The notes below the pieces were generated by a model. The model did no database searches. It had not been told where the DNA came from and saw only the letters and a list, made by a program, of their open reading frames with translations. This document shows, in pieces, positions 7,307 through 37,981 of a stretch of 37,981 nt of DNA. The position numbers were made by a program, and so were the translations under genes. How positions within the stretch are numbered: the stretch's first letter is position 1; each line of letters begins with the position of its first letter. Source of the stretch: Catajapyx aquilonaris (lineage: Eukaryota); contig JYFJ02003751.1 in assembly GCA_000934665.2 (NCBI GenBank), positions 1 through 37,981 on the forward strand, in the 5' to 3' direction.

Positions 7307-8602
7307 ATGGCAGCGGCTGTTCCGCTCTTCCGTGATCTGTCAGCGGATGACCCGGAGACCACTGAGGTCGAGAGCATGTGCATGCAGTGCGGGGAGAACG
7401 GGACGACTCGCCTGCTGCTTACCAAAATTCCATTCTACCGAGAGGTTATTCTCACCTCATTTTCCTGCCCGCACTGCCACCATTCCGACAACCACATACA
7501 GCCAGGAGGGCCCATACAGGCACGTGGGGTTGTTATCCGGCTGAAGGTGACCGCCAAGGATGATCTGAACCGACAGGTGGTCAGGTCGGATCAGGCCTCC
7601 ATCTCCATTCCTGAACTGGATTTTGAAGCGGAGACGCATGCGGAACAAAAGGGTGAAGTGACCACGGTTGAAGGTGTGTTGGAGAGGGCCAAGGTGGGAT
7701 TGAACCAAGGGCAGGCCATAAGGCGAATTGTGGATGTGGAAGCAGCCGAGAAGATAGATCAATTTTTGGAGCGCCTGCAGGCCGCCATTGATGGGAAGCT
7801 GGAGTTTACACTTGTCATTCGGGATATTGCTGGAAACAGCTGGGTGGAAAATCCTAAAGCACCTCAGCCTGACTCGGCAATTGAAACGTCGCATTTTGCA
7901 CGCTCTGCTGAGGAGGATACGCGTCTAGGGCTGTTCCGAAACAATGGCGAGGTTGAGCCAGACGCTGGCGATGCAGACCTGCGCAATGAGGTTCTGAAAT
8001 TTGCAACCAATTGTCCGCAATGCAATGCTCCATGTGAAACCAACATGAAGCTAACTGCTATACCTCACTTCAAAGAAGTGGTCATAATGGCTACCAACTG
8101 CGACGCATGTGGACATCGAACCAATGAAGTCAAGCCAGGAGGAAGCATAGAAACAACTGGAGTGCGGATAGCACTAAAAGTGATGCACAAACGTGACTGG
8201 AATCGTGACGTGTTAGCTTCTGACACATGTCACGTGCGCATCCCTGAACTGGACTTTGAAGGTGGAGGTGGGTCTCTGGGTGGTCGCTTCACCACACTTG
8301 AAGGACTCTTGGAAACCATCAAGGACAATCTGGTGAGGGACAACCCAATGCTAGTGGGAGACGCTGTCAGCCCTAACATCCAGGAAAGGCTGGACGGTTT
8401 CGTGCACAAGATTGACCAGGCCATAGCTGGTCAAATAAGGATCACTGTTGTGCTGGATGACCCAGCTGGTAATAGCTATCTTCAAAACCTGAATTTTCCA
8501 GACAACGATCCTGAGATGGAGGTGACCCACTACGAACGCAGTCATGAGCAAAATGAGGAACTTGGACTGAATGATGTGCGTGTTGAAGGTTATCAGTTGT
8601 GA
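7307..8602 (+). CDS. ZPR1: Zinc finger protein ZPR1; single coding exon, probable 5'UTR intron 7204-7296
   Basis: Two C4 zinc fingers each followed by an A/B domain (ESMCMQCGENGTTRLLLTKIPFYREV...CPHC; TNCPQC...IPHFKEVVIMATNCDACG), plus FTTLEGLL and LDDPAGNSYLQN motifs. Confidence 0.96.
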   Translation: MAAAVPLFRDLSADDPETTEVESMCMQCGENGTTRLLLTKIPFYREVILTSFSCPHCHHSDNHIQPGGPIQARGVVIRLKVTAKDDLNRQVVRSDQASISIPELDFEAETHAEQKGEVTTVEGVLERAKVGLNQGQAIRRIVDVEAAEKIDQFLERLQAAIDGKLEFTLVIRDIAGNSWVENPKAPQPDSAIETSHFARSAEEDTRLGLFRNNGEVEPDAGDADLRNEVLKFATNCPQCNAPCETNMKLTAIPHFKEVVIMATNCDACGHRTNEVKPGGSIETTGVRIALKVMHKRDWNRDVLASDTCHVRIPELDFEGGGGSLGGRFTTLEGLLETIKDNLVRDNPMLVGDAVSPNIQERLDGFVHKIDQAIAGQIRITVVLDDPAGNSYLQNLNFPDNDPEMEVTHYERSHEQNEELGLNDVRVEGYQL

Positions 8603-13935: not shown

Positions 13936-16900
13936 TTAAGTGATGTTGCCATGCTCGGAGCGTTTTGTCTGCTCTTCCCACATGCTGGTGTAAAATCCTC
14001 TACGCTTCAACAATGCCTCGTGATTCCCACGTTCTATTATAATGCCATCTCTTAGCACCAGGATCTCATCAGCATGGACAACTGTTGACAACCGATGTGC
14101 TATCACTATAGTCGTACAGTTCTGAAGAACCTTTTCCAGCGTTTCCTGTATATTCCTCTCTGTGTGACTGTCCAGGGCACTTGTTGCCTCATCCAAGAGT
14201 ACAAATGCCGGTGATTTTATGAGGGTGCGGGCAATTGCAACACGCTGCTTCTCACCTCCACTTAGTTTCAATCCACGCTCGCCAACCTGTGTGTTATACC
14301 CATCTTCCAATGATGCTATGGTGTCGTGTATCTCAGCACGCTTTGCTGCTTCAATCACATCTCCTTCGGTTGCATCATTACGCCCGTAGAGTATGTTGTA
14401 TCGGATGCTGTTGTTGTACAACACTGTGTCCTGTGGTACAATTCCAAGAGATTTGCGAAGAGACTCCTGAGTGACATCCCGAATGTCCTGGCCGTCTATC
14501 AATATACACCCCTCCCACACGTCATAAAACCTGAACAGCAGTCGTAAAATGGTTGACTTTCCACTTCCAGATGGCCCCACAAGTGCAATGGTTGCACCTG
14601 GATTGGCTACAAATGACACCCTGGACAATGTCTCATGCTCTGGGGTGTACCCAAATGATACATCTTGAAACTCAATCTTCCCTTGCAGAACATGCAGCTC
14701 TGGGGCATCATCTTTGTCTTTCACTTCAGGTTCCTTTTTGAATAGTTCAAACAGATTCTCCATATCAATGAGGTTCTTTTGCAAGGTCCGGTAATATGAC
14801 CCAAATGATGCTAATGGTGCATACAGCTGGTTGATGTAGGCCACAAACAGGACGTAGTCGCCCAAAGTCAGCTCACGATCCACGACCATAGACACGCACA
14901 GGAGGGAGCCGGCTAGAAGGCCTGAGTTGATAATCACATTCTGGGCCACGTTGAACAAGATGATGGCCACATTCAGCTTCCACTCCTCTGCCTGATCAGT
15001 GCAAAGTAAAGATGTGTTTACATGTGCGCGATTTGTTCGCGGCGATGCATCGCCAGCGGTAACATCACTGTGTAACCAAAGACACCAGTATTGTTTGAGG
15101 CGAAAATAGATTGTTACTTTCGCCCCAAACAATTGGATACATCGCTGCGAACAAATCGCTCACATTACAAATTGGGTTCATATTACAAACCAATATTTTC
15201 TGTCCACTTTACCTGGTATTTCCTTATAACATCATTGTAGTGCTTGACCTCGTTTTTCTCCTGTGCGTAGTACTTGACAGTCTCAAAGTTGAGAAGTGAA
15301 TCCACTGCCTGCGCCTGCTGCTCATTGTCTGCTTGGTTCATCTTTCTCCGGAATTTGGTCCGCCATTCCGTCAGGTATATGGTTGCCACTAAAATCAAAA
15401 GTGTTGACCTATAAAATGATGCATGTTTTTGAGCCAGCCAACGGGTCACTGGAGAGAACAAAACTCACCCACAAATATGACAATGGTGAGGACAACAATG
15501 ACCCCAAACCAGGCATTGAAGGCTGCAGAGAAATACACCACAGCAATGACAAAGTCTGCAATAGATGGCAGTATATTGAAAAGGACATAGTTGAGAAGGG
15601 TGTTGATGCTCTCCGTGCCACGGTCCACAGCCCTGAGGACCTCCCCTGTCTTACGCTGCAAGTGCCAGCGGACACTCAGACTATGTAGGTGGGAAAAGAA
15701 TTTCACCTGCAATTGAGAGAAATGTCAATGATTGTCACATTAACTCTGAGTATCCTGCATTAATACAGAGTAACTCCTACTGATAAAGGCATACAGGGTA
15801 GCATAGTTTTGAGGAAGTAGTTGGATCAGATGTATGTTCCACCAATTATTTACTCTTGGTTCCACGCATTATCCAGATTGCCCAGTAGCTGCCAGTAGAA
15901 GGAGTGATTTAAAAGGCAGTAGGCCTATTACAAAATACCTGCACTTCTCTTTCCGTGTACTGTTGCACTCGAATCCACAGGAAGCTCCTGATGTTCCCCA
16001 GGATTCCGGACCTGGCAACACCACCTTGAACTAGTCGCAACCCAACGTAACTCACAACCAAGTCCCATCTAAATCGAATGGGGGTGTTGTTCTCATCACC
16101 AGATATGCTGTCCACTGCAAAAATAATGCATAGTTAGTTGCATTAAAACTGTGAAATAATGAAATAATGGCATGCTTAACAGACTAAATTAGAATTCACA
16201 ATGTTAATCTTGGCATTAATTACACGGATGCCAGTTTTGGAATCAGCGCCACAGATATACCCTAAAATTGGTCTAACCTTCAAGGTACCTAAAGATCAGG
16301 ATGAGCAATATTATTGTCCCAGGTTTCAACATCTATTTAAATTACATACCTATCTTCTTGCTGTAGATAGGAACAAATAGATTCACAACTCTTTCTGCAG
16401 CTACACATAAGAAGTATCCAACAACACGCAGCTGCAGCCACGTTTCCTTCTTCGGCCAGATGAATGGAGAGAGAATCTTCACCTTTGCTCCCAAATTATT
16501 CCATGGTGATCTTGTTATGCTCCTCCTGGACTCAGTTCTGTTGGTGAGCAACATCTAGAAGGTTGACATGCTATCATCACAATGCAAACTGTCCACTATA
16601 ATTACTAGACAAGAAAGTAATAAGTGTACTTCTTGTGTTCTCTGACTGTCAGTAGGATGTATCTTCGGCTGCGATATTCCTGGTGCATAAAACCCAAGTG
16701 CAAGCACCAATAATGTTGCCACATATCGGAAGCAGAATATTGCAAGTTCAGCCTTGTCTGAAATACTAACGGAATTATAGTACAACTCACAAGTGCAGCA
16801 GTGCTTATTAACAGTGGCAAAGTGTGGCATGAATTTAGGTTCCACATGAGGCAAAAATGCAGGCATAAAGATAAGTTGATAATAATTATTATCATTTACT

Positions 16901-17607
16901 ATTAATTTGACCAAATTTAACAGTAATATGATACAATGAAGACCCATGTATAATATTTAAAACTATTCAAATAGCATCATGTCATCTAGTTCGAGTAGAA
17001 GCACAAGCAGACCACAAATTACCGTTTTAATAGGCCTACCAGCTAACACACTCTTTGCCTCTGCTTTCACAAAATAGGTTTACATTTAGCATTTATTATA
17101 CCTCTTAAGAGCAAACCATGAATGTTCAGAAGCTGTAGTCAGGAAGTACAGATTCTCCTTGATAGCCATCCAGCTCCAAAATGTAAGCAACAATGCACTG
17201 TGTCCCGTCCTTTGCCTGCGATGTAAATCATCTCTGCTGTTTCTTGTCTCTATCCCAATGAGTGGCACTGTCATCATCCAAGACATGATGTTCAAGGCCA
17301 TGGCCAGCACCACGTACCCCTGCACTCCTCCCTCCAAAACAGTGCTTCGGAGCACAAGGTGAAGCACTCCGAGCAACGGAATCAGAGCTATCAGAGCCAA
17401 CTGCAGTCGAAACAGCGACTTTGACTTGTGGACCAGATTTTCTCTGACCAACCCGGCACTGAGCGCATGCAGCGTAATCTGCACCAACCCAAATCCAACC
17501 ATGTAAGCACATCCCACCGCATTGCTAACAGTCTCCAGGAAACAAACTGACAACCCAGATTCATGCCATACAGCATGAAAGTTATCATATTCCGGGCAGT
17601 ACCGCAT
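13936..17607 (-). CDS. ABCB6: ABCB6/HMT1-like half ABC transporter, paralog A; exons 17607-17102, 16765-16630, 16554-16350, 16114-15939, 15706-15469, 15388-15213, 14991-13936
   Basis: N-terminal TMD0 (MRYCP...), [22 protein letters not shown], Walker [10 protein letters not shown], signature LSGGEKQR, Walker [11 protein letters not shown]. Confidence 0.9.
15022..15165. mobile_element. MITE in the last intron of ABCB6-A
   Basis: 30-bp TIRs: ATGTGCGCGATTTGTTCGCGGCGATGCATC and GATACATCGCTGCGAACAAATCGCTCACAT (3 mismatches), flanked by a direct TAC repeat. Inner hairpin TTGTTTGAGGCGAAA/TTTCGCCCCAAACAA. Confidence 0.8.
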
Positions 17608-17675
17608 ACTTCTGAAATAAATAGTACATTAATTATATTATTATATTATTATGCAACATACTGTATTATATTATA

Positions 17676-17779: not shown

Positions 17780-19076
17780 CATTGTATTGTATTATATTAC
17801 AATATATTATTGCGCCAACTAGAAAAAAAAGTAGTTACATGTCAACGGTAGCTTATGTGGCTGTATGGAACAAAAGTGTTACGTGTATAATAAGCAAGCA
17901 ACAACGAATAAACCATGCGTAGATGTCACTGTCAGTCCCTTTATTAACCGTAGTCACCCAAACATATGGCCTATGGCGTTGTTTTTGTCACTGTAGATCT
18001 GTTCATCTGTTGCCATGTGCAGTACAGTACCAACCTTTTTCACTCATTATTTCGATTCATTTATATACACACTCACCTATAGTATATGAGCCGCTGTTAG
18101 AGAGTGCAGTCCAGCACACAGAACGGTCGTCCCAACAGTGTTCCAAGGGGCCAGACGGATCCAACGCAGCCGTCAGACCGCATGTAACTAGCTCATTATC
18201 GCAATCAGATCACGTAATGCCAATCCATACGATCTACTCACGTTTCGTACCTTCCCCCCACCACTAGGATGAAATCAACGTAGCAGCTTTCAACCACCGA
18301 ATTTAACTTTTTAAAACTAATTTGTGCTCCAAACCCATTCCAATAATAATTCGCGCAATGATTTAAATATGACAAGAGCTAATAACGAGTATTTCAGATT
18401 AAGATCGGCAGGCATGAAATGGCATGAATGAACACTTTTTTTCTTCTTCTTCATTCGCAATCGGCCGGCGATTTATAGCACGTGCGGTTCTTTATTTCTG
18501 CGAATTAAATTCAACCAGAGTGGTCAAGGATATGTGACCACATCACGAGGAAGGAAATAAGCCAAGAACATATACTATCAAATACTATATAGTCGACAGA
18601 ACTTGTTTACTGAGGATGTGCTCCACTTGAGCTGGTTTTGAGGAAAAGGTGGATTGCGCTGGATTGCGCTTACAAAATATTGTTATTTGGTTGGCAGCAT
18701 CTTCTGGCCCAACATTTGGACATATCCGCTTGGCCTGTGAATTTATAATAAGTGGCGGTGGGTTGCAAGTACACTAAAAAGACGGACTACAATAATAATA
18801 CACTGTAGTATGACCCTGGGGCTGCCCAGATATTAAATTCCATATTTTCAAGTGTAGATCAAAGGATGATAATAATAATGGGCATGCCTAATATAATGTA
18901 CAGTACCGGTATATAATATTATCCTCTTTGACAGATGAGCTGCCATATGGAGTAATTTACATGTGAAACGGAATAGTGTATTGTGTTGCTACAAAAGATA
19001 TGGTTATGCATTGAAGCAAAGTTCAATATCGATGAACCTTTCTTCAAATCATTAGGGTGCCAGTACCTGAAACACA

Positions 19077-22000
19077 ATGAGATTCTGCCCAGCAAATGGG
19101 ACCATTGGCCAGTTTTGGGTGGACCATGGACTTACCCACTGCGCTGCGGACACTCTCCTGACGTCACTTGCGTGCGGCTTCCTCCTGCTCTTTGGGACTG
19201 CGGAATGGGTGGTGTACAGCAAGTACGGCACCCCTCTGGTGTCCTACGTGAGGCGAACTTCGTGTCTGTTTGTGACCCAGTGCGTCCTTATCCTCACCAT
19301 GGCCGGCCTGGATGTGGCCAGATTCACGGTAGAGGCTGTGGTTTTTGGAGAGAGAACACTGTATGGGTACATGCTGATGTGTGGGATCATGTCGTGCGTC
19401 ATGTGGGGCCTCAGTCTGGGCCTGGTGTCACTGGAGAGGAACTTCATGTTGCCCAGCACACCCACTCAAGGACATGGTGTGATCCTGCTAGTCTTCTGGA
19501 CTCTTACATTTATCAAAGAGAATCTTGCATTTCTCAGCTGGGGAAGTGAGAACTGGTGGTTTGGGATGCAAAGGTAAGAATTCCAGAAACCACCATTGCA
19601 CTTTTTTTTTCCTTTCAAGTTTCAACTGATGCATAACCTTTTGCAGTGCTGTCCTTTTACTGCAACCTTAATGTTCTCTTAGGCTATAGCAACCTTTTCG
19701 CACCCGCGACCCCCCAAATCATCTAAAATTTCTCCATGGCCCCCTTGCAAAAGTAACATACATAAATCTTTAATGAAGCAGCCAAACAATACAAGAAATA
19801 TATTTACCAAATATGGTACAATGCCTCTCACGGCCCCCTTGGGGGGCCACGACTCCCAGGTTGGGAACCCCTGGTCTATAGATAACATAAAAACTGCAAA
19901 GGTTTATATGTGTTTTAAGCACAGTAACTTACATGTAACTGTTGAATATTGTGTTGAATGAGGGGAGACAGGTTAGGAGTGTTGTTTCTGGCCGTGTTGC
20001 CTGATCTGCTTGCAATCTGTCAGTGTGCGTGATGCTATCTTATCATTTAAGCTATATACTCACAAGAGACTATAATATTTACATAAATAGATGGTTGTGG
20101 AATAAAATGTACATCATTACTTCAGTTGTAACCATCTGCTGCTAATAAATCTAAGTGTTTTAATTGTTTAATTCATTTGTAGCACATCGGACAAGGTGGA
20201 GTTTGGCCTTTTTGTTGCCCGTTACATCTCTACTTTTGGTATTTTTGTCCTGGGCTTGAAGGCACCAGGAATACCCCAAGTACATGACTACCGAGATGAA
20301 GAGAGGGCAGAGGTAAGTACAACATGTTCGCATTTTTCACCTACATGTTTTATCAATTTCACCTGATCCTCCATGCATGCCCTCCTTATATTATCTAGAT
20401 CTCCAAAGGGCTAAGAGGAAGAATATCCCTAAATATTTTGACTAATCCTGTACTTCTTTTTTTTTTTGCTGTCAGCCACTTCGAGGAGCTGTTGCCCAAG
20501 GGTCCACATTTAGGAACTTCTGGGAGAAGCTGAAGACATTGCTTCCATTTATATGGCCAAAAGGAGACACATGCTTGCAAGTGCAGGTCTTGTCCTGCTT
20601 GGGATTACTCGTAGTGGGACGCGTGGCCAATGTGTATGTCCCCATCTACTACAAGCTCATAGGTCAGGTTTGATTACAAATTCCTTGTCATGTATGACAT
20701 TAGGGAGCTTTTGCCCTTGCCGTACCTGGCCTGTGAAACTAAAATGCTTTTTTTTTTTTTCATTTTAGTTGACAGCTTGACCCCAGACAAAAGTGGACAT
20801 ATGCTCTATCGATGGGACTACGTGCTGATATACGTAGGCATCAAGTTCTTGCAGGGTGGTGGTGCAGGCACTACTGGACTTCTCAACAACCTGCGGTCCT
20901 TCATGTGGATCAGGATACAGCAGTACACAACCAGGGAAACTCAAGTCCAGTTTTTTGCTCATTTGCATGGACTGAGCCTGCGGTGGCACCTTGGAAGGAA
21001 GACTGGGGAGGTTCTTCGAATAATTGACCGGGGCACTGCCAGCATCAATACGCTTCTGAGCTATATTATCTTCACTATTGCTCCAACCATTGCTGATATC
21101 ATTATTGCCGTAGTGTATTTCACTACAGCATTCAATGCTTGGTTTGGACTCATTGTGTTTGTCACCATGTTTCTGTATTTGGGTAAGATCACTTTTGTAA
21201 TGTAAATTTTATTTTGTGTTTACAACACATTTTGTCCACACAGGTGCGACCATATTTGTGACAGAGTGGAGGACAAAATATCGGCGCTCTATGAACCAGA
21301 CTGACAATGAGCAGAGGGCCATAAGTGTGGATTCCATACTTAATTTTGAGACTGTCAAATACTATGGAGCAGAGGATTACGAGGTGGATCGTTACCGGAC
21401 TGCAGTGACGAATTACCAGGCAGAGGAGTGGAAATCAAATGCCTCCCTTAACATCCTCAACACTGTTCAGAATGCCATAGTCACTGGTGGATTACTAGTA
21501 GGTTCCTTGCTGTGTGTCCATATGGTTGCAGTAACCCGGAACCTCACTGTTGGAGATTACGTGCTCTTTGCCACTTACATTATGCAGTTATATGGACCTC
21601 TCAACTTTTTTGGAACTTATTACAGGTACTAATATCTCATAAAGTGAATGTTAAAAGTGTGTTTCCAAGTTCACGAGAGTCAGCCTTAGCGATAGTATGA
21701 GCAAGAGCAAGAAGCAAATTCTCAAGTCCTATTCGTCCAATAATCACTTCTCACTCAATCCAAATACGTTGTGAATTCACTCCAAACCTCTCATTCTTGC
21801 AAGCTTGGCAATACACCTTTATCCAAGGGACCTATTCATGATGAGATGATTTTGTGTCCCATAGTCAGTTCTCCTGTGTCAAGTAACCTTACTTGCTTCT
21901 CCTCACCCTATTTTTCCTCCTCGTACCTGTCTCGAGCTTGACAATTCCTGTTTTCAATACCTGTTTCAATATTTGTTTTCCCATACAACAGGATGATCCA

Positions 22001-23364
22001 GCAAAACTTCATTGACATGGAGAACATGCTTGACCTGTTTAAGGAAGAGCAGGAAGTGAAAGATTCCCCAGGTGCCACACCATTAAGAATTCAGGATGGC
22101 CAGATTGAATTCAAGAACGTTGATTTTTCTTACCACCCGGACAAGCCAGTGCTGAAGAATGTGTCCTTCTTTGTGCCTCCTGGAAAAACATGTGCCATTG
22201 TACGTATCTTATTGTGTTGAATTCCAAATGCCTGACAAATCAAAAAAAGGAAGTGAATACAATGTGTATATGCTACATTCTGCAGTTGTGACAATAATAG
22301 TTTTTCTTCAGGTGGGTCCATCAGGAAGTGGGAAGAGCACCATAATCCGGCTACTATTTCGGTTTTATGATCTCCAAAAGGGGGATATCCTCCTTGATGA
22401 TCAGAACATAAGGTATCTGAAGCAAGACTCAGTCAGACAGGCCATTGGAGTTGTGCCTCAAGACACTGTCTTGTTCAATGAAACCATTCAGTAAGTAGAA
22501 CAAATCACTGATGTCCCATCATGGCCATAAAGATAAAGGTAACTCATGTGTGAAGGTTCTGAGTGGACTGGAATTTTGCTGTAGATCTAATTTGAATATG
22601 CAAGTGGTGGGTTTTTGTGACATGAGTTTTCCTCATCTTTTGGCTGCAATGGTTCTGCACTTTTAATGAGCTATCATGCAGATGAAATTATCCACATTTA
22701 TAATCTGCAGCTATAACATCAAATACGGGCGAGTGACAGCTTCAGAAGCTGAAGTTGAAGAAGCTGCTCAGTACGCTGACATCCATGACAAGATTATAGG
22801 CTTTCCTGATGGATACAAAACAATAGTATGGCATTGTACATATTGTAAAATAGGAGTAAGTGATAGAAAATAGACTTTCAAAGTCAATTTTGCTTCACAG
22901 GTTGGTGAGCGAGGCCTGAAATTAAGTGGAGGTGAGAAACAGCGGGTGGCCATTGCACGCACCCTTCTCAAAAATCCTGCCTACATCCTCCTGGATGAAG
23001 CCACCAGTGCACTGGACACACAGACTGAGAGAAATATCCAAGCTTCCCTCAACAGCATATGTGCCAACAAGACCACCATTATTGTGGCTCACCGGTTGTC
23101 CACAATCATCCATGCAGATCAGATAATGGTTCTAAAAGATGGAGAAATTATAGAACGTGGAAGGTAAGGCAGAGTAAGGGATCTTCACAATTAGCACACC
23201 TTATTATGACACATTGCTTTCTCAGGCATCAAGACCTTCTACAGCTTGGAGGGACCTACTCTGCAATGTGGGAGCAGCAGTTAAGAAATGACAAGGATGA
23301 GAAGAGTTCTCCACTGAATTCAATAGAAGAAGTCATGGATGGAGGCGAAACTAGACATCCGTGA
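19077..23364 (+). CDS. ABCB6: ABCB6/HMT1-like half ABC transporter, paralog B; exons 19077-19573, 20183-20312, 20476-20662, 20769-21182, 21244-21625, 21992-22199, 22312-22490, 22711-22825, 22901-23163, 23226-23364
   Basis: MRFCP... TMD0, [39 protein letters not shown] and [14 protein letters not shown] introns with consistent phases. Confidence 0.93.
19681..19873. mobile_element. Degenerate hAT (Charlie-like) non-autonomous element in ABCB6-B intron 1
   Basis: Right end GGTTGGGAACCCCTG is a typical hAT TIR. Left end is degenerate (CAACCTTTT...CGCGACCCCC) and mirrored by the subterminal GGGGGGCC. Confidence 0.55.
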
Positions 23365-27278: not shown

Positions 27279-28478
27279 CTAGTTCCTCTTTAGCCTCCTC
27301 CACATCCTCTGACACCAAACCATCACTGAAAGCCACACAATCTCAAGGTTTCTTCGGTACCAGAGCTGACTGTATTCCGCATGCACATTGTGCATAGAGT
27401 TTGAAAACTTCTTGAAAAAGTCCGCCATCTCATCAGCAGTCAGTGTGCTACACTTCACTTTGCCATCCGGATATTTCTCCCTGAGACATTGCTGTACAAA
27501 GGCATCCCTCTCTATTCGGTGGATCATGTTATGCTGGTACCAGTACTCCTGGTTCCACCTCTGGACGGATTCTTTCTTCTCCCTGCAGCATCTTTCTAAG
27601 GCTGTCTCATTCTCCGGAATACAGAAGATCACAGGATGCAGGTTGCTAATGGGATTTACTGGGCCGATCCAGTCATTCTTGAGTTTTGGAAGGCCCAGTT
27701 GGAGAATCCCTCTATCTGTACTAAATCGCTGTGAAGAAAACAAAAGCTGTTTTAACAGTTGGAACAGTAGGAAGCAGCAGTTATGTCCAACTTGCAACTC
27801 CTTGCCATGAGTATAACCAGGGTATAACTCCCTTCTTTCCATATTTATTAATAAATGGTGTTAACGGTAGGTACTCTTCAACAGCATTGTTTTGCAAGTA
27901 TTATTTCTTGATTTTCATGACAAATAAGAGTATTGATCATCCTCCTTCCCTAGATCATCAATGATTCTAGCCTAGGATTCTTGGGCATGCTCAGTCGTAG
28001 TTCTCAGCAATTTTGGGCACTTCCATGTGTACGAACAGCAATATTCCTAGACTAAAATTATGTGACATGTATGCACAATACTTTATGTATAATCAGTGTG
28101 CACACTGGCCATATGCTGCCAGAATCAAATTACTGTTAGATTGTTCTATTCAACATCCGCCCTTGACGAATTACATAACCCCACCTTGGCCTGCTCTTCT
28201 TTTGGGACACTGTCTCCTTCTGGGAACCTGGTCCTCCGCATGACGGCCAGCTGCGTGTAGATCCTGGCCATCTCCTGGTCCTCCTTTTCCATCCCAACCG
28301 GCCCCTTGCCCTCTTTACCACCGCTTTCCTCCACGTCCAAGTCCAGCTGCATGACCACGGGAGGAGGCTTGAGCGTCTCCACCGCTACCTTCTGCGCTGT
28401 GGCCGAGCACCGTCTGGCAGCCCCCATCCCGCCGTACCCGTGGGGCAAGCGGAACACACGGACGGGAACGGCGTACAT
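27279..28478 (-). CDS. COA8: Cytochrome c oxidase assembly factor 8 / APOPT1; exons 28478-28185 and 27728-27279
   Basis: DWIGPVNPISNLHPVIFCIPENETALE...WNQEYW...LTADEMADFFKKF...WYRRN matches the APOPT1 family. Exon 1 begins with an Arg-rich presequence-like segment. Phase-0 intron. Confidence 0.88.
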
Positions 28479-30435
28479 GGCCACACGCGAAAATATGTCG
28501 AGATTCGAACAAGTTACGTGCCTCTGCCAGCCGCCATATTGAAATACCATTCGATCCAATTTCAGCCCGAGTCTAGCCCTCACGAGGTGGCTAGACTAAG
28601 GCTGGAATTATAATACGACCATTTTTACATATGCACAGCGCAATAAATGCATAAAATATTTAACGTGTAATTATACTGTAATGCTGATTCCTGCATTAGC
28701 AAGAGCAGTGCAGTAATTCCAACACTCAATATTCTTTGCCAAAATTTTGAGCGGGAATTTCATCAAGGTTAGCCTCTGCGTGTCTCCATGCACCTGTTTT
28801 GCCAGTCCTCTACTAAACAAGGGGTAAACCACACATGCACATTCAAGCACCTATACACACACACACACACCCAAGAAGTGCACAAGACGGCCTGTGATGA
28901 GATAACCGCCCCGCGCCGGTTCCCTTCCGTCCAATGCACTCGCTCAGCTGAGGAGGGTCAAGCAACTCGTCTCCTGCACAGCTCCCCCAAATAATAGTAA
29001 CAGCTCGTGCAGGTCACCTTAAAATTGAATCAATAGTTGTAACTGCCAAGGTCATCATTGTCCGAGGTCTAGGCCGCCGTCTAGCGTGCATTTCGTTCAG
29101 CGAATTCCCTCGGTGAGTATGCATTCAGTTCGGCCTTTGTGCTGTGCAAAGAAGCATCTGCGAGGGATAAGGTGGGAAATTGAAGAGTATCAAGAACTAC
29201 ACATTGCAAGTGCAATTTTAGGCAATATTCACGGCTGCTGTACAACACTGGTGACTGCAGGTCAAGTCTTTCATTTTCTACTTTACTGGAGTTGACTTTT
29301 TGTTTTGTTTTTTGCAGCATGTTACAATATCACACATTTTTTGGCCTTTTTTTCTGGCGTTGATGATTAGATTTTTACACCTTCACGCTGTGAATTCATC
29401 ACTTTTTAGATACATTAGCACTGAACTAATGGCTTGTCTGAGAGTTCTAAATAATTTCACCATTGCTGTTATTATTGTTATGATGTAAGCAAGGTACAAT
29501 AATAATCATAGCAATTCTGAATGTCATTTGAAACTTTTATGAATATAAGTGTTGATATCCCAGCGCAGACATACCAGTACATACAGTACAGTACATTCAT
29601 ATATTATTTGTGCCTCTGAGGATTTTTTTTCCCCTGAGGGGATATAAGCAACAGATGAGGCATGAATACATAAACAGATAAGAAATTAATCTGTAGATTA
29701 AGTACTGCACTTCAACCCTTGTTCCTCGATTCTCATACACTGCATAGTAATGCTAGCTACTCGTTTCTTGGCTTCAGTGCTTTGGCATAATACGGTACAG
29801 TAGTCTAGATAACATGGCAATTATTCTAGAAAAATTTCGGTGCAAGTTTCGAAATTACCATTGCCGCCGTTTTTAACGTCCTGCAGTTATGACATGGATG
29901 TCATATTTGTTAATTTATTCGTGAAGCTGACCACGAAGGGAAACTTCAAATGTTTTTTGTGTAAACGTAGGCCCTATCTAATCATAATGATGATAATTAT
30001 ATCGCATTAGGTAATTATATTATCTGTGTACTGTATAATTATTGTATTGGTGATTCGAGAAACACAGAGTAATCAGCCTCGATTTTATCCGAACTTTCGA
30101 ATATTCAGAATATATAATAATACATTAATATCAGTTATCACGCTATTATTTACTGATTTATGCTGCGCACAGGCATTCTCTACTCCTGGCATATGCTTTG
30201 ACTTCTGCTAATCTCCCCTCAACCTCCCAGATTTTTTTATCAGCAATTCAATTACATTGCCTAGTTTCAGAATTCAGTTTAATAAACCCGACCCTAAATT
30301 TTTACTGTACGTCCGGAATAATGACGATTATATTGAGTATAGACTACTCGATAAATTTTGATAATTTGAAATATTCTTTATTCCCACAGGCCAACTGGAA
30401 CGAAAATCTGCTGCCAAGTAGACCCTGTGTTTACC

Positions 30436-32712
30436 ATGGAGCCAGAGCATCAAAAGGCTATAAATGATAATCTCCAGATTTTGGTTGAGAAGACCAACTT
30501 TGAGTCTCTGTCCAAAATGCTTGTGGTGTATGGAATCATTACAAGAGAAACCCGGCGTCGTATTAATTCGGTCAGTAGAAAATCGCACGATATCATTATG
30601 ATTGGCACAACAGACCTGTAACTATTTCCATAGCCTGAGTCACTGTGCTATCTAAGGTTATCTATTATTTCGATAATCAGAACAATGACGTACGTGTTAT
30701 CAGAGACCAGTTGGCGGAACCAACAGGAAAATATATTTCTTAATGGAATTTATATTCTTTCACTGCTAACTTATCTCCGCATGCAAGCCATAATAGTAAT
30801 AGCATGTTACCCAGATGTTACCTTCTCAGTAATGAAAACGATACTCTGTATATGTCCAGATGTTGTTTCTTTAATGTACATATTATATTGCATCATCATT
30901 TTCACTCGTGAATTTCAGCTTAATGACAACAATAAACCAATGTTATGTTGATGCACTTTTATTTTTCAGGAAAATCCCAGCATCGGTGCGAAGAATCGTG
31001 CTTTGTACAAGCATATTCAAACCATCCCTTCAGCATTCAAAAAATTGATTGATTCATTGCTTGAAACTAACCAGAATGAATTAGCTGGACTGATTGGAAA
31101 GTATGAATATTTCCTCTCATATAAACATCAACTCCAATTAAAGATCGAGCTGTATGATAGTGGTTGCACTTTCTTTCCCAGGATTGATGTCAAATGTGCG
31201 CTAGATTGTGCTCAGAAGGGCAGCAGTGACGAAGATCCTCTGGTGATCATCGTGAAAAAAGCAGAGATGCACAAGGGGCCCAGCAACTCTGAGGTAACTC
31301 CCCTTCTGTTACATTTGTTTATCAGATTTCGGTGTATACATAAGGGAATCGTAATTTTACCTATTACAGTCATACAAGATGGGTTCCAATCCAAAGGGAA
31401 ACGCTTTAATAATCAACAACATAGACTTTATACCAGAGTTACATTTGTTGAAGAGGGATGGGGCAGAGGTCGATGGGAACAATATGAGGTCCTTGTTGGC
31501 TGGCCTGGGATATAGGGTTCAGTATCATGAGAACTGTGATCAAATGGTATGTAGTATTTTATGATTTTCAAGGAAAAACACTAAACCTATAGTTCACCAC
31601 CCTATTTGAAATAATAAAATCCACTTAAACCTGCAGGCAATGAGGAATCAAATTGTCAAATTTTCTGAAATGGAGGAGCACAAAGACGTTGACTCAGCTA
31701 TAATTGTAATCATGTCCCATGGCACAAAGGACGTGTTCTACTCAACTGATAGCAAAGAAATCCGTGAAGCATGGGTACTATCCCAATTCAACAATGTCCG
31801 ATGCCCAGCTCTTCTGGGCAAACCCAAAATTTTCTTCTTTCAAGCATGCAGGTACTGTGTTAGTACAAGTATGTATTATTTTGCAGCCTACCAATAAATT
31901 AACAAATTATTTAATAATTAATTCAGTTAAGTTAGAAGTTAATAAAGAAACATCGCATGCTTCTCTGTCATGTCACTGTAAGAAAACATTTCAGGGGAGA
32001 TGAAGAGGATTTAGGACATCGGTATGGATCAGATGGCCATTCCCAGGAACCAAAATCAAACACACAACCTGAAGCACTTGATGTCACTTGCTCAGACATG
32101 TATGTGGTTCGCTCAACAGTCTCAGGTAAAGATGTTCATATATGTAAGGTGAATTCACATGCTACCATAAGAGATGTTGAGCATTACAAGTGATTTGGGA
32201 TGGGAAGCTGTTTCACACTCTGACTTCACTCTGTCCTGCAAACATGACAAACACGTACAAGCCTATACGACCCAAACTCCTCATTTAAATGCCACCTTTA
32301 TGATATATGTATAAGCAACATTCAACTGGTACCGCATTACAATATTAATGTGTCTATATAAGAGTAATAATCTATTTAGATTAATGTATATTTATCTCTC
32401 TTTTTACAGGATATGTCTCCATTCGGGACCATATACGAGGAAGCTGGTTTATAGAAGTTTTATGTGTGGTTTTTATGGAGTGGGCCTGTAAGAAACACCT
32501 GGAGGCACTGATACGCAAAGTGAGCAGAGAGAATCGTACTGTCATAATTTATTGTCTAATAAGGTACAGTAATCCTAGCTTTATTTTTCATTTAGGCCCA
32601 GCAGAGAATAGCACGCATGACAGACGGGGTTGGACGTAAACAAATGCTTTCTGGGGAGACTGTGGGAATGATGTACAAGGTATATTTTAATCCTGACTCA
32701 TATGATGATTGA
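30436..32712 (+). CDS. Initiator-type caspase with CARD-like prodomain (Dronc/caspase-2/9-like); exons 30436-30570, 30970-31100, 31182-31293, 31370-31546, 31637-31851, 31995-32125, 32410-32519, 32596-32712
   Basis: PKGNALIINN, RDGAEVD, IMSHG, KPKIFFFQACR|G, GYVSIRD..RGSWFI. The N-terminal about 90 aa (MEPEHQKAINDNLQILVEK...AFKKLIDSLLETNQNELAGLI) has a CARD-like pattern. Confidence 0.9.
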
Positions 32713-33276
32713 CGATCATAACAACATACAACAGTGAAAGACTCCTGAAGAAAGAAGCTACTTCTTCCTAATTTGTGTAGAGTGCCAAATATGACTCATT
32801 CATAGCCATAACCATGGGTCATTTCTTGTGAGACTGGCCACCTTTTTATGCACTCTTACCGATTCTTTTTATTATGTTTGGTACATGTTGTACTAATGTA
32901 TAGGAGTCTCTGAGCAAATCCATTTTGCATCCACCACTTGGTTCCTACGTCTGGCATATTATGTTGCCATCTTCGAGCAGTTCTTTGGAGGTCAAAATTA
33001 CTTGCAAATATTAAGCGAAGGTGTAGTGAATGAGATAATTATATGTTCATCATTTTAAACATATATAGATATTCAAGGCTTTAGTATCTAGATGATTTTT
33101 AATGTACCATTTAAATCACTTTTCATGAACATTTCTGCTTTTTTGTCACATTCAACCATAAAAAAGATATAGATTTGTGTGCCAAGAGGGCCAAGACAGT
33201 GTTGACACTTTGGAAGTTTCTTTAAATGTAAGGGGCATAATTTTTAAAGGGTGGTTATCAATAATTTCTGACAATG

Positions 33277-33430
33277 CAGTAGACTCCAGATATAAGAGAC
33301 TTCAAGGGACTGCGGAAGTCAATCTGCTACAACCCAGGTTTGTTATATCCAAATACACAGGTCATTATGGAAGTGTGACCGGACCAGCCTTTCGAGTCTT
33401 CTATAACTGAAAGTCAGTTATTGCCGAGGT
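33277..33430. mobile_element. Degenerate pogo-type MITE related to the element at 17676
   Basis: Begins CAGTAGACTCCAGATATAA (compare CAGTTGACTCTGGATATAA), with internal GTTATATCC; right end eroded. Confidence 0.45.
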
Positions 33431-35421
33431 GTTCACATATCTGGTGAGGGGCTAAACTTTTATTTATAAATCATTTTTAAGTGTACCTGGGTGATTTTTA
33501 AACACATGAGATTGTAATACATTGTGCAGTTGGAGAAAAATAAACTTTTTAAATAACATGTCAAAATATTCCACCATATTATGTTGGTTCTTTGGGATAT
33601 ATGTTTCGAGTCACAGCTTATAGAAAAGAGCCCTCCCCTCCATTCCCACCCACCCCCAATCCTCACACACTTTCCTTTCTTTGCAGGAGTCTAGCTCGAT
33701 GAGGGAATGGAGGAGAAGGTTCTCTATATGTGGACTTCCAAGTTAACCTGTTGAGGGCGTGGCTCATATATATGCCAGTCTCCCCCAATGAGTACTATTG
33801 GATCAAAGCAAGCCTAAAATGTATGTGCGAGAAAAGTTGAAAACCCAACCACTGACAGTGAACGTATGGTTGCTCCGAGTGTTGCTCGTTAGACAAAAAT
33901 GTGGTCAACTACCTTGCATCTTACATCCTGGAACATATTCACAGAAAAGCATCTCAGCATGTTCTGTGCCAAGGATTTGGTCTTCGTTGTCTGCATTGTT
34001 AGCTATTTGGTTTAAAATTTCTTAATCCTACATATGAGGCTGTCTTAGGCCCAGGAGTACCCTGACATGAGATTGGCCCGGAATTCTGATTCAACCGGCA
34101 TTATTATTTAAAAACTACATCACTGGGACATGAGGAATAATAGTGCAAGTTTCTTGGCAGGCATTTTGGTTGTTACAATCATTCAGGTCAAGAGAAGAAT
34201 TTCAATTAGCCACAATTCAGGAAACGAAGCTGTACAATAGGAATATTCATAAAATACTGACGACTCACTAAAATTATTCACTTATGACTGAATTGGTTTT
34301 GCAGCATCTCAAGATTGGGCCCCACTGCTGACCCAGAATGGATTGGTCAGTGTGTTACATGTATGGAATCTAATTCTCCATTGCAGGACACTACTCCCAG
34401 CTTGAATCTATCTTTTGTGGTTCTGGTAATTTAGCCATTACATCGAATAAAAATTAAATTGCAACTCCTATGATATCAGCTGAGTTCCCTGAATAATTCC
34501 AACACTGCCTCAGCATTCTTCATTGACAAACAGCTGAGTAAACAGAAAACTACATAGCAATGTTGGTTGGTCCCTTCTAGTTGGAGGAATGCAGACGAAA
34601 GGGAGTTGATGTGGACTGGCTGGGTAAGGAGGGCAGCATGCATGCATCCAACATAGATCCACAGTGGATGAGAAAAAATATGAATTAGATGGGACTCTAT
34701 AGCGGTACCTTAGGCTGCAGCTGGGTTGGTACTGTACGTAAGAATTTGCTCATTCATGTCCTGGGTCTCATTTTGTGAACCTTGTGCACTAGCACTAGTC
34801 AGGAAGGTGGGTAAGCAATTGCAATGAGGATGTGAACAGTCATTGCTGGAGTATATTTAGAAGGAAGCAGCTCCTAAATATATTCAAAGCAAGTGAATGT
34901 TGAGTAGTAATATACCAATATCTCAGCATCTTTTTCTTTCATAACAATTCTTTAGATACCACTATAAATAGCAGCCTATGGGCAGAGTGGGAGTGTATGA
35001 CAGCATTTCCAATCCCTCACACTCTCTCCCACTGCTCCAGGTTACAGATTGTGCTGTCTTTCCTGAAGGAAAACAACAACTGTAGACTGTAGTGTAGAGC
35101 AGGAATGGTTGGTTCATGAGGGCCCGTGGGAGGCCTCCACCTTAACCCATCCCACCCATGCCTCAGTGAACAGCAGCAATTTTTTAATACTAGGATGATA
35201 AGCCTGTAATCTAATCAGCTGTACAAGCAAGTTATCAGAGTGGGTGGAGCAGTGGACAAAATTACTTCCACACAGACCCTAGCAGTAGTTCCACAACTGC
35301 TGTCACAAGTGTTGCCTCTTTTACTCTACATAGGTATTTAACCCAACTGCTCTGCAGATGGACCTAACTGCATCATCAAAGGCAACTCTCTCAAAAACCT
35401 TTTGACATTGGGCAGTAAGAA

Positions 35422-37697
35422 ATGGCAAGACGCCAAGAACACTTGGATGACGAGAGAACCTTGTATGCTGCCGTTGCTCACGGACACTTGGGCATTGTAG
35501 AAAAACTTTTGCAAGATGGTATGGATGTGAACATGCGAAACAACAACTATGAGACACCTTTGATCATCGCTGCTCGTGCAGGTAATGCTGCAATGTGCAA
35601 GTTTCTCATTGAAAACGGTACCAGCATCAATAACCAGTCAAATGATGGGATGGATGCTTTACACGAATCTGCAAGAAATGGATGGGTAGAAATATGCCGA
35701 CTTCTCTTGGCCAACGGAGCAAATGTGGACAGTCGAGATAATAGAGCCAACACGCCTTTGCACTTGGCAGCACAATCAGGAAAACTAGAAGTGATCAAAT
35801 TGTTGTTGCAGCGCCAAGCAGATCTTCTTTCATATAATGATGAAGGTCATACTCCCCTCAGTCTGTCAATTTTGCATGACCATGCTGAAACAGCATTCTA
35901 CCTGCTAGACTTTGCATCCAAGCAACAAAGGTAAGTGTCCACATTAACTTAGAAAGAACTGATTCATTAGGTCTATTTGTTTATGGGCCAGTTAAGCCCT
36001 GGTGTAATGCCAATGTAAGCACCATATTAATTTATTCCAGTAAAGGGAGAGCTGGAGCATGCCCTAGCTTGACTGCATTTGTTTATTTCAGTCATTACGT
36101 CATTTATGTCATTACAATGTCCTACACACTGACTGCCCAATAAACAAATGGACCTATTACTTGCAATCATCGTTGTCCAATACATAGTCATCTCTACACA
36201 CAGTTTCCTTTTGCTTATTTTGCATGGTGTGGATCTATGGTGATATGAATAAAATTACCCACAATAAGCGAGGTTGTATCAACTGGAGAAATACACCTTG
36301 AAGCTGACGGGGTTTCAAGAACCACAGTTACACGTCCTCGTACAGCAGGCACTGAGGTACAATAATTATTGTGGTATAGTATGCATTGAACATTTAAAAT
36401 GACTGTCTTTCCCATTTCACAGGAAGTTTATCAGATGCAATCTAATCCAAAAGGATTTGCTCTTGTTATAAACAACATTAATTTCACACCTTTCTCTGGT
36501 TTAAAGGAGCGAAAAGGAGCAAAAGTTGATGGGGAAAACATTAGTGAGCTGTTAAAGTATATGAATTACGAAGTGGAATACCATGAGAACTGCACTCGAC
36601 AAGTGAGTGTAATCATAATTTTAACTGCGTACAGTTGAATGAAAGGGATTTTAATTCCGCATTATTTCGCATATTAGGACATGGTAGATATACTCATAGC
36701 GTTTTCTAACAAGAACCATACTCAAGTGGACTCAGCAATAATTGTGATAATGAGCCATGGTAATAAGGATGTCTTTTACTCAACGGATGGTTGGGTGGTA
36801 GCTGATTCTTTTGTATTCTGGTGTTTAAACAATAGTCAATGTCCAACACTGAGGGAAAAGCCCAAAATTTTTATATTTCAGGCATGCAGGTTAGTTGAAT
36901 TAAATTATTTCTTATTCCTGATGAAATAAGTAATCCTTAATTATGAATTTCATTTCCATGTTACATATCAAAGGGGTGACAAAGGTGATTATGGCTCAAA
37001 AGGTACTGATTCTGCAAAGAGCAGTGTCACAGATCAACATCCAGCTTACGACAATGTTACCCATTCTGACATGTATATTGCACGCTCAACCATACCAGGT
37101 GACGTTATGGGTTCTCCTCCTGAACATTGAATTTGGTCCACAGTTATATTGGGTGGGTTTTTATCCTACTGGTGAAGTTAGCAGTACTTAGCACCCATGG
37201 GATAGCTTGTAGGAAAGTGCACATTAGCAGTCGTGTCCTGCATGATGAATAATAACACCTAGACTTCTTGGAAACAAGACTTGTTTTTCTCATTCGGATT
37301 TTTTGGTGTTTGTGTGGTGCATTTTTTTATGCTTCATATGACATCACCTTAAACTTCACAGCTGCATAAATTCTACCGCATTCAAGTAATTTACAACAGC
37401 TGACCATTTCTCTACTGTGCAGGGTATGTTTCCTTCCTCGATGAAGAAAGCGGTAGCTGGTTTGTGGAAGAAATATGTGCAGTATTCAGAGAATTGGCTC
37501 ATGAAGAGGACCTGGAATCTATGATGAAAAAAGTCAGTAAAAGGGGTTTTTATTATTGAAAAGACACTAATGATGTTCTCCTTTTCCAGGTGATGAAGAG
37601 AGTTGCTTCTAGGAGTGATGAATGGGGTCAGAAGCAAACAGTAGCAGGAGAAAGCTATGGACTAATGTATAAGGTCTATTTTAACTTGCACCCATAA
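35422..37697 (+). CDS. Caspase with predicted N-terminal ankyrin repeats; exons 35422-35930, 36269-36356, 36423-36602, 36678-36889, 36974-37098, 37423-37532, 37590-37697
   Basis: Exon 1 has about 5 ankyrin repeats (TLYAAVAHGH, TPLIIAARAGN, ALHESARNGW, TPLHLAAQSGK, TPLSLSILHDH) and ends at a strong donor AG|GTAAGT. Downstream are PKGFALVINN, RKGAKVD, IMSHG, KPKIFIFQACR|G and GSWFV. The linker exon 36269-36356 is phase-compatible but has a weak acceptor. Confidence 0.8.
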
Positions 37698-37981
37698 TTC
37701 TCATTTTAATAAACTATTGTAATAGCAATAACCACCCCACAATAAAATTGTCATTTAATAACCAGCTAGAATTCCTTGGTTGGAAAGTGCAACCAAACTG
37801 CATGCGTACCTGGTGTCCAACAAGAATATTGTCGCAGTGGCAGCGCACGAACTACAGTCTCTCATGTCCCTGTGCCCGTAGATTGTACTTGCCCAAACCC
37901 AGAATAATTCGCTCACCCTGATATTTCCCAGTTGAGAATATGGAAATGACGAAATATAAATTAATTGCACATAAATAGGGT

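Follow-up and report, generated by a model that had tools for sequence, protein, structure and literature searches.

Locus and gene structure

The sequence analyzed here, referred to as the window, is a contig of 37,981 nucleotides from Catajapyx aquilonaris (JYFJ02003751.1 of assembly GCA_000934665.2). The DNA is eukaryotic, has a G+C content of about 42% and short GT..AG introns, and contains two caspase genes in tandem on the + strand: gene A at 30436-32712 and gene B at 35422-37697, with gene A lying 2.7 kb upstream of gene B. The reading favored in this report, which is held with moderate confidence, is that gene B is one expressed gene encoding a caspase of 443 amino acids (aa) in which about five ankyrin repeats serve as the prodomain instead of a CARD. 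Gene A is a CARD-like caspase of 402 aa whose exon model has seven exons (30436-30570, 30970-31293, 31370-31546, 31637-31851, 31995-32125, 32410-32519 and 32596-32712).

Gene B begins with a 5′ untranslated region (UTR) that spans at minimum 35297..35421 and contains an upstream open reading frame of 15 codons (35359-35406, + strand) inside the transcribed stretch. Because a transcript contig runs unspliced over 35297-35646, this 5′ UTR is at least 125 nt long and coding begins in the ankyrin exon. That exon (exon 1; 35422..35930, 509 nt, 169 codons plus 2 nt) opens with the ATG at 35422, has an in-frame TAA directly 5′ of it (35416-18) and shows A at -3 and G at +4 around the start codon. It is covered by transcript contigs over 35297-35927 and, as the initial annotation had stated, stays open to a phase-2 donor at 35930 (AAG/gtaagt).

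Intron 1 (35931..36268, 338 nt) leads to exon 2, an 88-nt linker exon (36269..36356) that is stop-free in the inherited frame, ends in phase 0 and encodes the motif LEAD/G at 36297-36311. The linker exon cannot start a protein, because it has no in-frame ATG and an in-frame TGA lies just 5′ of it (36246-48). Its skipping would break the frame, 88 nt being the length that turns phase 2 into the phase 0 of exon 3, and the chance that an 88-nt exon is both stop-free in an imposed frame and restores phase 0 is estimated here at about 0.08. The predicted intron 2 (36357..36422, 66 nt) is placed by splice signals and frame in a stretch with no transcript cover, and runs from the donor GAG/gtacaa to the acceptor tttcccatttcacag/G.

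The caspase domain occupies the five remaining exons. Exon 3 (36423..36602) starts the domain and includes residue 229, the first S1-pocket Arg, while exon 4 (36678..36889) holds the catalytic His at 36756-58 (in SHG) and the catalytic Cys at 36885-87 (in QACRG). Exon 5 (36974..37098), which aligns with gene A, encodes an intersubunit linker in which several Asp occur, together with the beginning of the small subunit. Exon 6 (37423..37532) carries Leu377 (CTC, 37437-39), which the alignment places at the second S1-pocket Arg and for which the transcript contig has no differing letter. Exon 7 (37590..37697) ends in the stop codon TAA at 37695-97, and an AATAAA polyadenylation signal follows at 37708..37713, 11 nt past the stop. 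Peptidase_C14 (PF00656) scores above its cut-off in three of the five caspase exon translations (E 1.1e-9 for exon 3, 5.4e-14 for exon 4 and 3.9e-5); exons 5 and 7 taken alone have no Pfam match, and neither does the linker exon. When the seven exons are joined by script, they form one frame of 443 aa that contains SHG and QACRG and ends in TAA. The gene B coordinates of the initial annotation, along with its call of a complete caspase domain downstream of the ankyrin exon, are thus correct, except that two internal boundaries are shifted by one base each (37532/37590), which leaves the protein unchanged.

Transcript evidence

Transcript evidence comes from one public run, of a kind not on record, whose assembled Logan contigs were used over 30000-37981. 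Seven joints are present in the run, and because each of them is a GT..AG skip (57-338 nt) that coincides with predicted exon borders, the run appears to be transcript-derived. Two of the joints remove the last two introns of gene A (32125/32410 and 32519/32596). The ankyrin-to-linker splice of gene B is seen directly in one 398-nt contig of depth 2.89, at a joint from 35927 to 36266 whose cut, moved by +3, is 35930/36269, with 92 letters on the shorter side. A single 684-nt contig shows all four introns of the caspase part of gene B removed (36602/36678, 36889/36974, 37098/37423 and 37532/37590) and extends beyond the stop codon.

The predicted placement of the ankyrin prodomain on the same polypeptide as the caspase comes from a transcript contig for the first splice, and from frame, phase and splice signals for the linker-to-caspase splice. 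The acceptor of predicted intron 2 is strong and pyrimidine-rich, and its length of 66 nt compares with confirmed introns of 57-85 nt. Gene A has a phase-0 intron at the matching place, one residue apart, which joins its prodomain to its caspase domain. The fused ankyrin-caspase mRNA is probably the main product of gene B.

Predicted ankyrin prodomain

The Pfam search of the ankyrin exon returns Ank in 4 stretches with E 4.1e-33. A single-sequence AlphaFold2 model of the exon consists of stacked helix pairs (pLDDT 79.7, pTM 0.74), with a fifth, capping repeat that is less confident. In Foldseek, the best matches of this modeled block are the consensus ankyrin protein 1n0r and designed ankyrin repeat proteins (DARPins), at probability 1.00, and 393 PDB sequences match the exon at E <= 1e-10. 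Exon 1 of gene B thus has the tandem 33-residue helix-turn-helix repeats by which ankyrin repeats are recognized.

Gene B has no detectable CARD, scoring -0.4 bits with a custom CARD profile and matching only Ank families in Pfam, and no second ankyrin exon occurs anywhere in the window. Among the longer proteins that match the ankyrin exon, none of the 120 matches listed carries PF00656; these matches are giant ankyrin proteins, and a 443-aa ortholog of gene B would score below their range.

Gene A and the tandem duplication

The initial annotation had proposed that the two caspases are tandem duplicates, and this is borne out. Genes A and B are 50% identical over 244 aa, in an alignment whose first position is the residue just ahead of the caspase domain. 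The four introns of their catalytic parts occupy matching alignment columns and have phases 0, 2, 1 and 0, and exon 6 is 110 nt long in both. In the tree described below, the two domains are sisters (SH-aLRT 99).

A CARD profile built from five Pfam-verified CARDs matches residues 7-83 of gene A with 15.5 bits over 76 of 87 profile positions, and an alignment pairs residues 1-84 with the CARD of a caspase-2-like protein from a horseshoe crab. The domain is divided between exons of gene A, and Pfam, run on each exon singly, detects no CARD. The CARD-like nature of the gene A prodomain is thus modestly supported by these sequence matches. Because gene A and its chelicerate relatives carry a CARD, the ankyrin prodomain is taken as the derived state.

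In the scheme favored here, a CARD caspase of the Dronc/caspase-9/caspase-2-like kind would have been duplicated in tandem. One copy would then have lost its CARD exons and taken a new first exon that supplied promoter, start codon and ankyrin repeats, and the short linker exon would have restored the reading frame. The initial annotation had instead invoked exon shuffling. With both the 5′ UTR and the start codon on the ankyrin exon, internal shuffling fits less well than capture of a new first exon, and the ankyrin prodomain appears to have been gained by such a capture.

Two observations concern the 3′ side of gene A. An unspliced 523-nt contig (33052-33574) ends about 35 nt past an AATAAA at 33539 and is probably the end of a long 3′ UTR of gene A. 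At 33278-33323, loose ends of several contigs suggest a repeated element.

Phylogenetic analysis

The tree was built from 93 caspase domains with SH-aLRT support values. The A and B pair lies inside a clade of 26 rows (SH-aLRT 95) in which all 11 named members are pancrustacean, namely crabs, shrimps, crayfish, krill, an ostracod, a copepod and two beetles, one of them annotated as 'caspase Nc-like'. The neighboring group consists of chelicerate CARD caspase-2-like proteins. The end branch of gene B (0.36) is shorter than that of gene A (0.77), which argues that the caspase domain of gene B is under constraint. The phylogeny of both catalytic domains that the initial annotation had called for thereby favors paralogy.

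Other searches place the domain in the same family. When exon 6 is compared with solved structures, all six matches are human caspase-9 (four sequences) or Drosophila Caspase Nc (two sequences). Judged by these matches and by the tree, the catalytic domain of gene B is of the Dronc/caspase-9/caspase-2 kind. Exon 4 (70 aa), used as the query of an exhaustive profile-free search, returns 1122 proteins at E <= 1e-3 with a best identity of 53%, and the best identity over the whole domain is about 39% (a Scylla caspase-2 cluster).

Ankyrin-like matches occur in 3 of 151 caspase relatives, one jellyfish model and two Macrostomum proteins, all of which fall in the other half of the tree. None of the 29 arthropod-half proteins has Ank by Pfam. 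Because of this distribution, and as far as the sampled sequences tell, the ankyrin prodomain of gene B is an independent gain.

Several candidates from wider searches were set aside or noted separately. A metagenome scan with a caspase exon found one locus, a 25-residue match on a GC-rich, bacterial-looking contig, which was rejected as unrelated. A word search with a caspase exon gave one match among five candidates, a caspase of Physella acuta (P0121) fused to an AIG1/GIMAP-type GTPase. Another protein, P0230, joins a CARD-caspase to glutathione synthetase and looks like a merged gene model.

Catalytic residues and predicted activity

Both catalytic residues are kept in gene B. His286 stands in a column that is His in 89 of the 93 rows and Cys329 in one that is Cys in 90 of 93, so the loss of catalytic Cys and/or His that defines a pseudo-caspase is not seen. 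Across the 26 columns conserved at 80% or more, gene B has the majority residue in 23 and gene A in 25, and two of the three departures in gene B are conservative (Val for Ile and Leu for Phe).

The third departure is Leu377, in a column that is Arg in 84 of 89 filled rows. Gene B is the sole row with Leu, the remaining non-Arg rows having Val, Lys, His or Gly. The residue aligns with the Arg of SWR in human caspase-9, and that Arg is kept in gene A and in the ankyrin-bearing caspases of Sanderia and Macrostomum. Arg229, Gln327 and the column of Leu377 are taken here to be S1-pocket residues, 377 being the position of the second arginine in the pair that holds the P1 aspartate. Where such a pocket has two Arg and one Gln, gene B has Arg229 and Gln327, with Leu377 in place of the second Arg. 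Because the His-Cys pair, QACRG and one S1 Arg are kept and the second S1 Arg is Leu, gene B probably encodes an enzyme that is active but whose recognition of the P1 aspartate is weakened or altered.

These residues bear directly on the main functional rival, in which the same fused gene yields a regulator of other caspases. Its product would be a decoy or modulator that pairs with gene A or other caspases in the manner of cFLIP and caspase-8, or it would have a different P1 preference. Leu377 fits such a role, given that the Arg there is so widely kept (84 of 89 rows, gene A and the Sanderia and Macrostomum proteins included), and the tandem paralog gene A would be a plausible partner. Known pseudo-caspases, however, usually lose the catalytic Cys, and gene B keeps Cys, His, QACRG, the first S1 Arg and the Gln in a domain that has evolved more slowly than that of gene A. 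Designed ankyrin proteins that bind and inhibit caspases are cited in the accessible part of PMC11463336, and PDB entry 4lsz is among the Foldseek matches of the ankyrin block, which again suits a regulator. Taken together, this alternative is considered unlikely, yet not negligible.

Under the favored reading of gene B as an ankyrin-bearing caspase, the loss of the CARD would prevent CARD-CARD docking on an Apaf-1/Dark-type apoptosome, and the ankyrin block would offer a surface for recruiting, clustering or restraining the protease. The LEAD/G motif in the linker exon may be a caspase cleavage site, motifs of the (L/I/V)ExD type being of the kind preferred by initiator caspases. This post-hoc observation makes LEAD/G a plausible prodomain-shedding site, at which the ankyrin block could be cut off.

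Weight of the evidence

A number of observations count against the favored reading. Transcript support is limited to a single run with contig depths of 2.9-10.5. Arithmetic on its depth bins leaves about 36359-36516 without cover, and the joint 36356/36423 is therefore unobserved. The donor of intron 2 (GAG/gtacaa) is moderate and departs from the strong consensus, and an internal Met of exon 3 (in EVYQMQ) could start a caspase that lacks the prodomain. With Leu in place of an S1 Arg, the protein could be inefficient or inactive as an Asp-specific protease. No ortholog of gene A or gene B was found among the proteins searched (best exon identity 53%, whole domain 39%), and cross-species conservation of the fusion consequently cannot be shown. 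Placement in the arthropods rests on the caspase tree and on a weak ZPR1 tree. Finally, tblastn with E up to 50 detects no CARD relic near gene B.

The last of these results also limits what can be said about the origin of the fusion. No DNA similarity was found between the A and B loci outside the catalytic exons, and this result together with the missing CARD relic indicates that the duplication is old and that the mechanism of the swap is unreadable from the sequence. The CARD-to-ankyrin swap proposed in the initial annotation is supported for its two end states, gene A being CARD-like by the custom profile and gene B having Ank by Pfam.

The coverage gap neither supports nor contradicts the linker-to-caspase splice. 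It leaves room for a second reading, in which the locus makes two products. These would be an ankyrin-only protein, formed by the ankyrin and linker exons plus two codons before the TAA at 36363-65, and a prodomain-less caspase that starts within 35931-36422 and uses the Met in exon 3. The linker contig ends at about 36357-58, within 1-2 letters of the predicted donor, and the caspase contig begins at about 36517, so that the end of the linker contig could be a branch point between spliced and unspliced forms. If intron 2 were retained, the frame would indeed stop after two codons (gta caa taa). A retained-intron transcript that ran on into the caspase exons would, however, carry a premature stop, and the predicted intron (36357-36422) contains no AATAAA at which a shorter transcript could end. 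Moreover, the acceptor at which exon 3 begins is strong and in phase 0, the length of the linker exon is exactly what the frame requires, and the homologous intron of gene A joins prodomain to caspase. Nor does the moderate donor set intron 2 apart, since confirmed donors nearby include gttagt, gtgacg and gtcagt. The two-product reading is accordingly judged distinctly improbable.

The initial annotation had stated that the linker exon joins ankyrin repeats and caspase in frame and had asked for transcripts across both junctions. The frame is open and the ankyrin-to-linker junction (35930/36269) is found in a contig; the linker-to-caspase junction (36356/36423), which falls in the uncovered gap, is supported by inference from the sequence.

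A third alternative holds that the locus is a functionless young chimeric gene or splicing noise, in which the splice from ankyrin exon to linker exon would be a rare by-product, and that it is drifting towards a pseudogene. In the one run, the ankyrin and linker exons are covered at low depth (2.9-5.6), and at 36309 in the linker the one transcript contig (depth 2.89) has T where the genome has G, which would change the Gly directly after LEAD to Trp and may be an allele or an assembly error. The lack of an ortholog among the proteins searched would also suit a recent origin. On the other hand, the 50% identity between genes A and B implies an old duplication, and still the gene B branch is the shorter of the two. 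All seven exons are open, every splice site is intact, 23 of the 26 conserved columns are kept and the start codon is flanked by A at -3 and G at +4. Noise or decay is for these reasons regarded as extremely unlikely, and the single fused gene remains the preferred reading.

Genomic neighborhood

The neighbors of the two caspase genes are housekeeping genes. HSP70 is encoded in one long exon at 4577-6364 on the - strand, and ZPR1 lies at 7307-8599 on the + strand as a single frame of 431 codons without introns; this simplicity contrasts with the six introns present in each caspase gene. An exon of COA8 (cytochrome c oxidase assembly factor 8) is located at 27282-27860 on the - strand. Two ABCB6-type half-transporters, each with MTABC_N, ABC_membrane and ABC_tran domains, are divergently oriented at 13939-17628 (- strand) and 19071-23164 (+ strand), and form a second old duplicate pair in the window.

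The best identity found for ZPR1 is 57%. Its tree places it outside the vertebrate clade (SH-aLRT 99) and, weakly, beside branchiopods (78), on a long branch. Just 3′ of gene B, the stretch 37828-37890 is matched by four contigs at a depth of about 52, with small indels and loose ends, and looks like a dispersed repeat. ARAGORN detects no tRNA genes in the window.

A bolder version of the fused-gene reading can be considered in this context. The duplicate of an apoptosome caspase would have become an apoptosome-independent, single-chain and inflammasome-like sensor-effector, in which the ankyrin block binds a pathogen effector or a ligand that signals danger or non-self and the S1 Leu relaxes the preference for Asp. 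If true, this would be an inflammasome-like sensor protease in a phylum thought to lack such proteins. The housekeeping neighborhood lends no help to the immune-sensor idea of the initial annotation, and the bolder version is regarded as speculative and very unlikely.

Comparison with known caspases

A caspase with an ankyrin prodomain (ANK caspase) was reportedly first noted in Schistosoma, by Lee et al. in 2014. According to the accessible part of a later survey, ANK caspases are present in every parasitic flatworm examined, as a clade whose sister group is the DED caspases, and a single convergent case comes from the annelid Alitta virens (Krasovec et al., 2024, PMC11463336). The same portion of the survey reports ankyrin-prodomain caspases as unseen in ecdysozoans or deuterostomes, and states that caspases with odd prodomains might be prediction chimeras and are usually paralogs of classical ones (PMC11463336). 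A full-text literature search that left the supplements of PMC11463336 uncovered found no report of an ankyrin-prodomain caspase in an arthropod.

Gene B, in its predicted fused form, would share with the flatworm and Alitta proteins, as described in that part of the survey, an N-terminal ankyrin prodomain placed before a p20/p10 caspase domain, and it resembles the Alitta virens protein in being a lineage-specific paralog of a classical caspase (PMC11463336). Its ancestry appears to differ. The flatworm ANK clade is given as sister to the DED caspases (PMC11463336, accessible part), whereas gene B is sister to the CARD-like gene A within a pancrustacean Dronc/caspase-2-like clade. The kinase-ankyrin caspases of Macrostomum, which the survey text places beside the flatworm ANK caspases (PMC11463336), and the DED caspases both fall in the other half of the tree from gene B. 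The tree thus does not group gene B with the flatworm ANK caspases by common descent, an indirect comparison in that the set holds no parasitic-flatworm sequences. At the S1 Arg position, the Leu of gene B contrasts with the Arg of the ankyrin-bearing caspases that could be aligned, again a set without parasitic flatworms.

Two of these other lineages provide further observations on the architecture. The jellyfish model of Sanderia malayensis (P0255) has Ank_2 followed by Peptidase_C14, twice in 1127 aa, and so shares the domain order predicted for gene B; it is an unverified EukProt model that lies far from genes A and B on a long branch, with an ankyrin part about 30% identical to that of gene B. 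Ankyrin-prodomain caspases may thus exist in jellyfish too, and the gene model may have merged a tandem pair of them. In Macrostomum lignano, P0142 and P0225 combine a protein kinase, ankyrin repeats and a caspase in about 1070 aa by Pfam. For the M. lignano caspase beside the flatworm ANK caspases, the accessible text of PMC11463336 mentions only a kinase-like prodomain, and the ankyrin part seen here may link the two.

A functional precedent is offered by Caiap, an adaptor of fish that has 16 ankyrin repeats besides a CARD and binds caspase-1 through its ankyrin part (PMC5662874, accessible part). There the ankyrin block contacts the caspase and stabilizes the active complex, so that ankyrin repeats have a precedent as a surface that regulates caspases. 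Caiap has no protease domain and acts in trans, whereas the roughly five repeats of gene B would be fused in cis to the protease.

The closest comparison for the enzyme itself is with Dronc, caspase-9 and caspase-2. The catalytic domain of gene B groups with theirs and has in common with them QACRG, SHG and a linker motif of the (L/I/V)ExD type. Those caspases carry an N-terminal CARD; gene B has none, and by this difference it would not be recruited through CARD-CARD contacts to Apaf-1/Dark or to PIDDosome adaptors. The Leu that replaces the second S1 arginine likewise sets gene B apart from them.

The docking domain of an initiator caspase decides which death or immune platform activates it, and exchanges of this domain show how new cell-death pathways arise. 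Gene B is probably an independently evolved case of the known ANK-caspase architecture and the first from an arthropod; the locus does not open a new field. Earlier ANK caspases come from gene predictions that their authors, in the accessible part of the survey, call possibly chimeric (PMC11463336), while here one of the two critical splices is supported by a transcript. To these cases the locus adds an independent origin in a probable arthropod, with the parent-type CARD copy 2.7 kb upstream and an unusual change in the S1 pocket.

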